From NCBI GenBank assembly GCA_038320275.1, contig JBBQEB010000054.1:1-22336 (forward strand): 22,336 nt of DNA, read 5' to 3'. The notes below the pieces were generated by a model. That model saw nothing but the letters and a program-made list of their open reading frames with translations, made no database searches and had not been told where the DNA came from. The number at the start of each line of letters is the position of its first letter. The stretch's first letter is position 1. Positions 7,581-9,599 of the stretch are shown piece after piece. The stretch comes from Myxococcales bacterium. Lineage in GTDB: Bacteria > Myxococcota > Myxococcia > Myxococcales > Anaeromyxobacteraceae. The position numbers and the translations under genes are program-made.

Positions 7581-9599
7581 ATGCCCTTCCATTTCTCCGT
7601 CGCCGCCCGCGACCCGGGCACCCGCGCCCGGCGCGGCACCTTCACCACGCCCCACGGCGCGGTGGAGACACCCGTGTTCATGCCGGTGGGCACCCGCGGC
7701 ACGGTGACCGGACTCACGCCCGCCGATCTCGAAGCGCTACAGGTCAGGATCGTCCTCGGCAACACCTACCACCTGCTGCTGCGCCCGGGCCCCGACGCCA
7801 TGCGGAGCTTCGGGGGCCTGCACCGTTTCATGGCCTGGGATCGCCCCATCCTCACCGACTCGGGCGGCTTCCAGATCTTCTCGCTCCCGGGGGCGCGGAC
7901 GCTCACCGAGGAGGGCGCGCGCTTCAAGAGCTACGTCGACGCGAGCTACCACACGCTCTCGCCGGAGCGATCCATCGAGGTGCAGACCGCGCTCGGGTCC
8001 GACATCATGATGGCTCTCGACGTGTGTCTGCCCTCCACCGCCGGCAGGCCCGAGGTGGTGGCCGCGATGGAGCGCACCCACCGCTGGGCGCTGCGCAGCC
8101 TCGCGGCGCGCACCGAGCCGGAGCAGGCGCTCTTCGCCATCGTGCAGGGAGGGCTCTCCCTGGAACTGCGCGCCGCCTCCGCGGCGTTCCTCACCGCGCA
8201 CCCCTTCGACGGGTTCGCCATCGGGGGGCTCGCGGTGGGGGACACGCGCACAGAGCGCGCGGAGGTCGTGGGGCGCGCCGCCGAGCTCCTGCCCGAAGAC
8301 CGGCCCCGCTACCTCATGGGCGTGGGTACCCCCGCCGACATCCTGGAGGCCATCGCCCAGGGGGTCGACATGTTCGACTGCGTCATCCCCACGAGCCTCG
8401 CCTGGCAGGGCACCGCTTTCACGTCCGCGGGCCGGGTGCGCATCACCCGCAGCGCGTACCGGCTCTCCCAGGAGCCCCTCGACGCGGCCTGCGCTTGCGC
8501 CACCTGCACGCTCCACACGCGCGGCTACCTCCACCACCTCGCCAAGTGCGGGGAGCCGCTCGCCCCGCGCCTGCTCTCCATCCACAACCTGCAGCACTAC
8601 ATGGATCTCATGCGAAGCGCGCGGAGCGCCATCGAGCGCGGCGGCTACGACCCCTTCATGCGGGAGACCCTGGCCGCGGTGGACCGCCACGAGCACGACG
8701 CCACCGGGCGGCCCCCGGGACGCCGCGCGCCACTCCCGGCCGCCTCGCCGTCCGAGCCGGTGGGCCCTCCCGGCGGCCGCTTCGCCATCCTCTCGAGGCC
8801 GGGTGAGGCGCCCGCCGTGAGCGACCGCGAGACCGGCGAGGTCATGCACCCCGGCCTCGGCGTCGAGGAATCGGAGCGGCTGTACGCTGGACAGTCCGGG
8901 TTGCGGGAGCGGCTCGGGGAAGACGGGCCGCCACTCGTGCTCTTCGACGTGGGGCTGGGAGCGGGATCGAACGCGCTCGCCGCGCTGCGTGTCGCGCGCG
9001 CGGCGCCCGGCCGCAGGGAGCTCCAGATCGTGAGCTTCGACCGGCAGCTCGAGGCGCTCGAGCTGGCAGCCTCGGACGAGGGGGCGGCGCGACTACAGCT
9101 CGCTCCGGAGGATCGCGAGGCGGCCCGCGCCCTCCTCCGGCGCGGCGCGCACGAGGAGCCCCGGGCGCGCTGGCGGGTGGTGGTCGGCGAGCTGCCCGAG
9201 ACCCTGCGGAGCGCCGAGCCGCGCGCGGAGCTGGTGTTCTGGGATCCGTTCTCTCCCCAGCGCAATCCGGAGCTCTGGACCTGCCAGGCGTTCGCCGTGC
9301 TGCGGGAGCGCTGCGTCCCGGGCGCGACGCTCTTCACCTACAGCAACGCCACCGCGGTGCGGACGGCGCTCCTCCTGGCGGGCTTCTGTGCGGGGACGGG
9401 AGCGCCCTCGGGCCCCAAGGAGGAGACCACCGCCGCCGCCTGCCGGCTGGAGGATCTCCGCCAGCCGCTCGACGCTCGCTGGCTCGCGCGGCTCTCCCGG
9501 TCGAGCGCGCCCTTTCCCCGCGACGCGCCATCCGATGCGCTGGCCCGCGTGCGGGCACACCCGCAGTTCGGCGGAGGGGCGGGCCCATCCGGCGCGTGA
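7581..9599 (+). CDS. tgt: tRNA-guanine transglycosylase fused to a C-terminal MnmC2/MnmD-type SAM methyltransferase
   Basis: TGT part: TPVFMPVGT, NTYHL, LTDSGGFQ, IVQGG, GGLAVG, YLMGVG, DMFDCV and Zn site CACATC..H. After a Pro-rich linker: DVGLGAGSN, IVSFD, FWDPFSPQRNPELWT and TYS..TAVR.AL..AGF, matching the MnmC methyltransferase motifs (GFGTGLN, LDGFAPAKNPDMWT). One uninterrupted frame. Confidence 0.92.
   Translation: MPFHFSVAARDPGTRARRGTFTTPHGAVETPVFMPVGTRGTVTGLTPADLEALQVRIVLGNTYHLLLRPGPDAMRSFGGLHRFMAWDRPILTDSGGFQIFSLPGARTLTEEGARFKSYVDASYHTLSPERSIEVQTALGSDIMMALDVCLPSTAGRPEVVAAMERTHRWALRSLAARTEPEQALFAIVQGGLSLELRAASAAFLTAHPFDGFAIGGLAVGDTRTERAEVVGRAAELLPEDRPRYLMGVGTPADILEAIAQGVDMFDCVIPTSLAWQGTAFTSAGRVRITRSAYRLSQEPLDAACACATCTLHTRGYLHHLAKCGEPLAPRLLSIHNLQHYMDLMRSARSAIERGGYDPFMRETLAAVDRHEHDATGRPPGRRAPLPAASPSEPVGPPGGRFAILSRPGEAPAVSDRETGEVMHPGLGVEESERLYAGQSGLRERLGEDGPPLVLFDVGLGAGSNALAALRVARAAPGRRELQIVSFDRQLEALELAASDEGAARLQLAPEDREAARALLRRGAHEEPRARWRVVVGELPETLRSAEPRAELVFWDPFSPQRNPELWTCQAFAVLRERCVPGATLFTYSNATAVRTALLLAGFCAGTGAPSGPKEETTAAACRLEDLRQPLDARWLARLSRSSAPFPRDAPSDALARVRAHPQFGGGAGPSGA

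Follow-up and report, generated by a model that had tools for sequence, protein, structure and literature searches.

A second bacterial tRNA-guanine transglycosylase fused to an MnmC2-fold methyltransferase: a candidate route to N-methyl-preQ1 in RNA

The window, the whole stretch of 22,336 nucleotides of Myxococcales DNA analysed here (contig JBBQEB010000054.1, assembly GCA_038320275.1), contains a single open frame at 7581-9599 on the forward strand that extends from ATG to TGA and encodes a protein of 672 amino acids (aa), designated P0001. An earlier note on this DNA had read P0001 as a complete tRNA-guanine transglycosylase (TGT) joined by a proline-rich linker to a methyltransferase domain of the S-adenosylmethionine (SAM)-dependent MnmC2/MnmD type, and profile and fold matches confirm this. 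TIGR00430 matches aa 14-369 with 443 bits, above the cut-off of 306.75 and so sufficient for membership of Tgt, and PF01702 matches the TGT part with an E value of 9e-144. The C-terminal domain is matched by PF05430 with 69.6 bits (cut-off 22) and, among PDB sequences, best by Aquifex MnmC2 (3VYW; E 3e-16); its score of 82.9 bits with the MnmC2 model NF033855 is below the membership cut-off of 136. Full MnmC models match only over their first 230-242 positions and the flavin adenine dinucleotide (FAD) oxidase domain is therefore absent, as the note had also stated. As documented below, the fused TGT is an extra paralog, here called TGT2, and the fusion is conserved in at least seven phyla. We tentatively propose that it couples insertion of preQ1 (7-aminomethyl-7-deazaguanine) with N-methylation of the inserted base at a site in RNA other than the usual U-G-U anticodon.

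The frame is gene-like throughout, with a third-codon-position guanine plus cytosine (GC) content of 0.95 for the TGT part and 0.90 for both the linker and the methyltransferase part. A read-derived contig, probably from the same sample, covers 8174-9724, including the domain junction, with 0 differences, and the same fusion is a single frame in three single-contig genomes (G017, G024 and G033) and in other phyla, so that an assembly or stop-loss artefact, a possibility raised at the outset, is ruled out. An AlphaFold2 model of P0001 built from a 42-row alignment has a mean predicted local distance difference test score (pLDDT) of 91.5; a single-sequence model (pLDDT 38) was unusable and was discarded. 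The model matches TGT 3UNT with a Z score of 52.6 (root-mean-square deviation (rmsd) 1.4, 365 residues aligned; template modelling (TM) score against bacterial Tgt ~0.95) and MnmC2 3VYW with a Z score of 26.2 (rmsd 3.1, 240 aligned). The linker, in which aa 372-389 have a pLDDT <50, is predicted to be disordered and differs in length among relatives. A predicted complex of two TGT2 domains with the methyltransferase domain scored 0.00 and was not used as evidence. The ratio of nonsynonymous to synonymous polymorphism (pN/pS), 0.39 in the TGT part against 0.51 in the methyltransferase and 0.63 in the linker, was given no weight because high GC constrains synonymous sites. A search of sequencing runs listed no RNA data set that contains the sequence. 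The named homologues nearest to P0001 are from cultured Anaeromyxobacter species and all are labelled in databases as plain Tgt.

Table 1. Features of the fusion gene and its product P0001, with the corresponding residues of Zymomonas mobilis Tgt or of MnmC
Feature	Position	Strand	Basis
TGT2-methyltransferase fusion gene, 672 aa	7581..9599	+	frame, profile matches, read-derived contig, codon GC
TGT domain, aa 1-369, TIM barrel and zinc site	7581..8687	+	profiles, fold match
Asp93 = Z. mobilis Asp102, general acid/base	7857..7859	+	149/149 in alignment A4
Asp147-Val-Cys149 = Asp156 and Cys158, guanine/preQ1 pocket	8019..8027	+	alignment; Asp147 149/149
Leu217-Ala-Val219-Gly-Asp221 = Leu231-Ala232-Val233-Gly234-Glu235, bacterial preQ1-type pocket	8229..8243	+	alignment
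Arg226, TGT2 gain	8256..8258	+	TGT2 68/68, canonical 3/32
Asp266 = Asp280 (E. coli Asp264), catalytic nucleophile	8376..8378	+	148/149
Ser272...Trp275-Gln276 replacing Arg286...Arg289-Asn290, RNA-contact motif marking TGT2	8394..8408	+	alignment
Arg290 replacing Asn304, TGT2 gain	8448..8450	+	TGT2 68/68, canonical 2/32
Zinc ligands Cys304, Cys306, Cys309, His335	8490..8585	+	each 68/68
Pro-rich linker, variable length, predicted disordered	8694..8771	+	model pLDDT, relatives
MnmC2/DUF752-fold SAM methyltransferase domain, aa 398-664	8772..9572	+	PF05430, 3VYW fold match
SAM motif I, Asp456-x-Gly-x-Gly-x-x-x-Asn464	8946..8972	+	D, G, G, N each 149/149
Motif IV, Asp555-Pro-Phe-Ser-Pro	9243..9257	+	Asp555 149/149
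Lys613 = E. coli MnmC Lys236, listed as RNA binding	9417..9419	+	139/149

The distribution of the fusion and the presence of a second, canonical tgt, both of which the earlier note had proposed to check, establish that the fused TGT is a paralog. Searches of 60 relatives, 36 of them in the same family as the source genome (37 family genomes with the source included), identified a fused-type TGT in 34, of which 27 are among the 36 and one is a fragment only. A second tgt match is present in 34/34 of these carriers and in 33 it adjoins queA; TGT2 is therefore not the queA-linked copy. A scan with the methyltransferase alignment detected at least 532 related places, and of the best 80, kept as the distant set, TGT sequence is fused to 76, a contig end truncates 3 and 1 is stand-alone. 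These 80 loci are distributed across Bdellovibrionota, Verrucomicrobiota, Spirochaetota, Pseudomonadota, Eisenbacteria, Thermodesulfobacteriota and Myxococcota. Gene searches in the genomes of 50 of the 80 identified a second tgt match in all 50 and queA in 48, and queF is present in 64 of 66 carriers (the 50 distant genomes and 16 Myxococcota). Twenty of the extra tgt copies from distant carriers were fetched, 19 of which are canonical and one a stand-alone TGT2. In a quick, unrooted tree, 32 TGT2 and 32 canonical rows are separated by a branch with a support of 100, which stays at 100 with 42 diagnostic columns removed. The fused TGT is an extra paralog and not the queuosine enzyme of the cell.

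Residues were compared in 68 full-length TGT2 sequences from the 80 loci (12 that were cut, split or without a TGT were omitted) and, unless stated otherwise, are numbered as in Z. mobilis Tgt, mapped by alignment. D102, D156, C158, Q203, L231-E235, M260, D280 and the zinc ligands are retained in all 68 and, as judged from the alignment, the catalytic and preQ1-pocket residues of TGT2 are intact. The pocket has Val233, versus Gly in queuine-using enzymes, and Val233 and Cys158 together are given as marks of the preQ1-using type of TGT (PMC4425180). Position 235 is Asp in the Anaeromyxobacteraceae family of P0001 and Glu elsewhere. R286 and R289 are present in 32/32 canonical copies and in 0/68 TGT2; among cluster representatives, R286 occurs in 0/28 and R289 in 1/28 fused rows. 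V282 is replaced by Ile in 68/68, E157, near the base pocket, by Q, H, V or I, and the arginines gained at P0001 positions 226 and 290 are present in 68/68. In the 1Q2R structure, Lys52, Arg286 and Arg289 presumably read U35, and Gly263 and Asp267, the equivalents of which are retained in 68/68, presumably read U33; no direct statement of the U35-contact residues was found in the literature searched. A basic residue is kept at the position of E. coli K292 in 67/68 and of R320 in 63/68 (mapped by offset from D264), residues reported in a cryo-electron microscopy study to be required for tRNA binding (PMC13416341). The pattern suggests that TGT2 is an active preQ1 transglycosylase that still binds a stem-loop and in which the contact 3′ of the target G has been rebuilt.

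The methyltransferase domain has the class I SAM fold with the motif I Asn and the motif IV Asp-x-Phe that identify MnmC2/MnmD, and the SAM motif and the amine-activating Asp are invariant (149/149). Asp555 corresponds to Asp178 of E. coli MnmC and Asp193 of the Aquifex protein. This Asp has been proposed to activate the amine, and MnmC2 proteins are described as methylating tRNA-bound aminomethyl groups, at position 34 (PMC3648344, PMC3527978). Neither mnmE nor mnmG was found in any of the 37 genomes of the source family, three of which are single-contig; the controls and 12 other genomes of the order were positive. Both genes are nearly universal in bacteria and MnmE and MnmG make the substrate of MnmC2. 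With mnmE and mnmG at 0/37, the usual MnmC2 substrate is therefore probably missing in the source family. The MnmE N-terminal domain was not found in four genomes of this family, MnmM was not found in 61 genomes nor a YtqA/Elp3-type domain in 6, and mnmA is present in 5/5 genomes tested from families without mnmE and mnmG. The two genes were likewise not found in either carrier of family f8, nor in genomes of families f3, f7, f8 and f9. The methyltransferase domain is present in 27 of the 37 source-family genomes, the source included, and is missing in 7 relatives that have mnmEG and no TGT2. Within the source family, the sole aminomethyl group that can be placed within reach of the domain would be the one installed by TGT2. 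A separate MnmC2/MnmD, for which the earlier note had also proposed to search, was looked for in the 50 distant carriers. Eight of them have an MnmC or MnmC2-type gene in addition to the fusion, and the 8 corresponding rows split from the fused domains with a support of 91 in an unrooted tree with long branches and only these 8 MnmC2-type rows; a second PF05430 gene was not found in 36 of the 50.

The assembly of the source genome, which is 91% complete, has one tgt match, that of the fusion, and contains queC, queF, mnmA and two queG-like genes; mnmE, mnmG, MnmM and YtqA/Elp3-type sequences have no match in it. That the window lacks queA and queG holds, with queA not found anywhere in the assembly and the queG-like genes located on other contigs (L073 and L074, on G000:C5 and C267; both exceed the TIGR00276 cut-off). 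In three relatives, the canonical tgt is in a block with queA and with yajC, secD and secF, the latter three assigned by eye, and no member of this block was found in the source assembly. As secD, secF and yajC are absent together with queA, the absence of queA is probably due to a missing contig or assembly gap rather than to loss of queuosine, and a real loss of queA is rejected. The anticodon loops of the tRNAs of the source genome gave no hint of the target RNA. This genome has two tRNA-Sec genes (G000:C89, C231).

The reading that we favour, to which we give slightly less than an even chance, is that the fusion both inserts preQ1 and N-methylates it, in a coupled way and at a site in RNA that differs from the usual U-G-U anticodon. 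TGT2 would flip out a guanine in a stem-loop without U at the next position and swap it for preQ1, the base suggested by the pocket residues, after which the tethered domain would methylate the 7-aminomethyl nitrogen of the inserted preQ1, the order of the two steps being the one we think plausible. The most economical guess for the target is G34 in tRNAs whose position 35 is not U, favoured because the U33-side residues and the basic residues that bind the stem are retained. Queuosine would still be made on tRNAs with GUN anticodons by the ordinary queA-tgt pathway, and the methyl group would block further conversion of the new site to queuosine. It is quite likely that some coupled, methylated-deazaguanine product is made. 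Rather more doubtful is that a separate TGT branch, in at least seven bacterial phyla, places N-methyl-preQ1 in RNA at a site beyond the four tRNAs that receive queuosine.

Coupled insertion and N-methylation of preQ1 was the central suggestion of the earlier note and, as a prediction from sequence, is strengthened by the intact residues and by the absence of mnmE and mnmG from the source family; the idea that it gives an end point alternative to queuosine, at one and the same position of the tRNA, has lost ground. On that reading, TGT2 would act on ordinary GUN anticodons, all, some or conditionally, and the methyltransferase would cap the preQ1. The intact preQ1 pocket and U33-side residues would serve there equally, MnmC2 chemistry works at position 34, Lys52 stays Lys or Arg outside the source family and the gained arginines could substitute for the lost contacts. 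It is nevertheless unlikely, as carriers keep tgt, queA and queF, with the canonical tgt and queA side by side in almost all of the relatives, the source assembly has its two queG-like genes, and R286 and R289, invariant in the canonical copies, are absent from all 68 TGT2. The note had also offered, as the simpler case, that a single chain holds two wobble enzymes working independently, one a TGT and the other an ordinary MnmC2/MnmD methyltransferase for 5-aminomethyl-2-thiouridine (nm5s2U34). The fold and catalytic motifs are indeed those of MnmC2, mnmA is present in the source genome, mnmE is present in most distant carriers, the majority without another PF05430 gene, and, as PF05430 has matches in two control archaea without an mnmE hit, a substrate route without MnmEG may exist. 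This is rendered very improbable by the 0/37 for mnmE and mnmG in a family with 27 carriers of the domain, by a score under the MnmC2 cut-off, by the apparent branching of the domain apart from coexisting MnmC2-type genes and by its absence wherever TGT2 is missing, including the 7 relatives with mnmEG.

Two further readings were considered. TGT2 could be a heterodimer partner that brings the methyltransferase to the canonical TGT, or could modify another RNA, DNA or a protein. A second tgt match accompanies the fusion in every carrier searched except the source assembly, and the TGT fold has been re-used to act on DNA (DpdA, Z 26.3) and on a protein (Cap10-CdnD, Z 20.0); a non-catalytic subunit, QTRT2 (Z 40.5), has it too. 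TGT2 is, however, 46-47% identical to tRNA TGT and 15-22% identical to DpdA, Cap10 and QTRT2, and all of its catalytic residues are retained. No dpd or defence genes were seen beside TGT2, viral contigs gave one weak, partial match, and phage and plasmid records only partial matches (covering 26-41% of the domain and, where named, annotated as MnmC/MnmD), with no full-length relative found in any of these records. Such a role is accordingly considered quite unlikely. Reversal of the two steps, with free preQ1 or a relative methylated and then inserted by TGT2, or methylation of another amine near the inserted base, appears similarly improbable. It would fit the alterations specific to TGT2 close to the base pocket (Q/H/V/I for E157 and the new R226) and the existence of stand-alone methyltransferases of the fused type; yet the Lys listed as RNA binding in MnmC is retained in 139/149 and MnmC2 proteins act on aminomethyl groups already bound in tRNA.

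Several observations weigh against coupled modification at a site outside the U-G-U anticodon. Among the 50 distant carriers, mnmE is present in 48, and, as a second PF05430 gene was not found in 36 (MnmM was not searched there), the fused domain could serve as MnmC2 in these cells. Lys52 is Thr in the source family and is Lys or Arg in 68/68 of the distant TGT2, and queF is generally common in these phyla. A strong methyltransferase match is present in 32/34 TGT2 carriers and 0/26 non-carriers among the relatives, which speaks for a coupled role, but this co-occurrence is largely forced by the fusion and is among kin that are not independent. The halves can also occur apart, as stand-alone TGT2 genes (L175, L047, L044, L042 and L029) and as 8 methyltransferases of the fused type that stand alone. 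No conserved neighbour genes, and no hint of the substrate, were found at 21 Myxococcota loci or the 80 distant loci. The target RNA is a guess and the function is deduced from sequence.

In G048, one of the carriers with a strong methyltransferase match, TGT2 and the methyltransferase are on separate contigs. In G041, a gene between the two resembles, by eye, a cell-wall amidase. One of the three TGTs of G097 (L175/L200) is a stand-alone TGT2, and a methyltransferase of the fused type likewise stands alone elsewhere in that genome; the two may form a second pair that is split. Of 24 loci scanned for tRNA genes, 23 had none. In G039, a stand-alone TGT2 (L047:158-1961) that lies at the end of its contig adjoins tRNA-Ser(UGA), tRNA-Ser(GCU) and tRNA-Arg(ACG), which are also together on one contig in the source genome. 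Stand-alone methyltransferases of the fused type at L194:3551-4507, L196:4819-5637 and L198 ~4900-5750, in genomes that also carry the fusion, are head-to-head with leucyl-tRNA synthetase, an adjacency that may reflect shared ancestry or hint at tRNA-Leu.

Elsewhere in the window are three further methyltransferase genes, PrmA-like (12804-13472, weak), TrmJ-like (14386-15243) and RsmE (~18400-19166), none of which is a conserved neighbour of the fusion. There are also aceK (16654-18408), a methionine aminopeptidase gene with an N-terminal SEC-C-like motif (19099-20148) and an ArnT-like glycosyltransferase gene (20169-21794). The region 187-7326 has several large secreted or lipoprotein-like frames without an NCBIfam family, and a Cys-rich, MXAN_6577/CglD-like gene at 5974-7326 on the reverse strand is divergent from the fusion.

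If the proposal is correct, tRNA would gain a new nucleoside: N-methyl-preQ1 would join queuosine and archaeosine there as the third natural end product of the 7-deazaguanine type, with both steps carried out by one self-contained enzyme. Bacterial TGT would no longer serve U-G-U anticodons exclusively, as the rule has it, and an MnmC2-fold enzyme would have switched its substrate, with a deazaguanine in place of a uridine adduct. A natural TGT whose sequence preference differs would also extend the reach of RNA labelling by TGT. Because databases label these proteins plain Tgt, predictions of the queuosine pathway count the paralog as the normal enzyme. With the nearest named homologues in cultured Anaeromyxobacter and the mass of the product fixed, the proposal is directly testable.

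The earlier note had known of no such end point in tRNA. No report of N-methyl-preQ1 in RNA, or study of the TGT2 branch, was found in the literature searched, with most subscription papers outside it, and neither is mentioned in the parts consulted of a recent review (PMC13602947). The fusion itself had already been recorded, as a COG0343 plus COG4121 pair, in one clause of the accessible text of a preprint and with no function, residue analysis or test given there (bioRxiv 10.1101/2023.12.21.572861); this pair is most likely the same family as P0001.

Compared with known systems, TGT2 has the fold, catalytic aspartates, preQ1 pocket, zinc site and U33-side residues of bacterial Tgt (Z. mobilis, E. 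coli; TIGR00430; 1Q2R, 3UNT), but is an extra copy on its own branch that is not beside queA, carries a methyltransferase, has R286, R289 and N290 replaced and has gained R226 and R290. The fused domain has the fold, motif I, motif IV Asp-x-Phe and Lys of MnmC2/MnmD/DUF752 (Aquifex 3VYW and, in E. coli MnmC, the domain at the N terminus), whereas its score is below the NCBIfam cut-off, it appears to branch separately, it has no oxidase partner and it is retained in genomes without mnmE and mnmG. Archaeal TgtA (which acts at G15), QTRT2 and Cap10 are TGT-fold proteins with other targets or roles, to which TGT2 is only 15-27% identical; the C-terminal extension of TgtA is absent from TGT2, and its catalytic site shows no decay. 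The closest parallel in predicted chemistry, insertion of preQ1 followed by N-methylation, is provided by phage DpdA2 and DpdM, described as making mdPreQ1 (N-methyl-preQ1) in DNA (PMC10516641), and the fusion would then have converged with the phage on this base. The phage enzymes, as described there, act on DNA and are encoded by separate genes, and DpdM is a metal protein of the DUF3109/YkgJ-like kind, without the Rossmann fold. The domain fused to TGT2, in contrast, belongs to PF05430, and no dpd genes or conserved neighbours were seen beside its gene.

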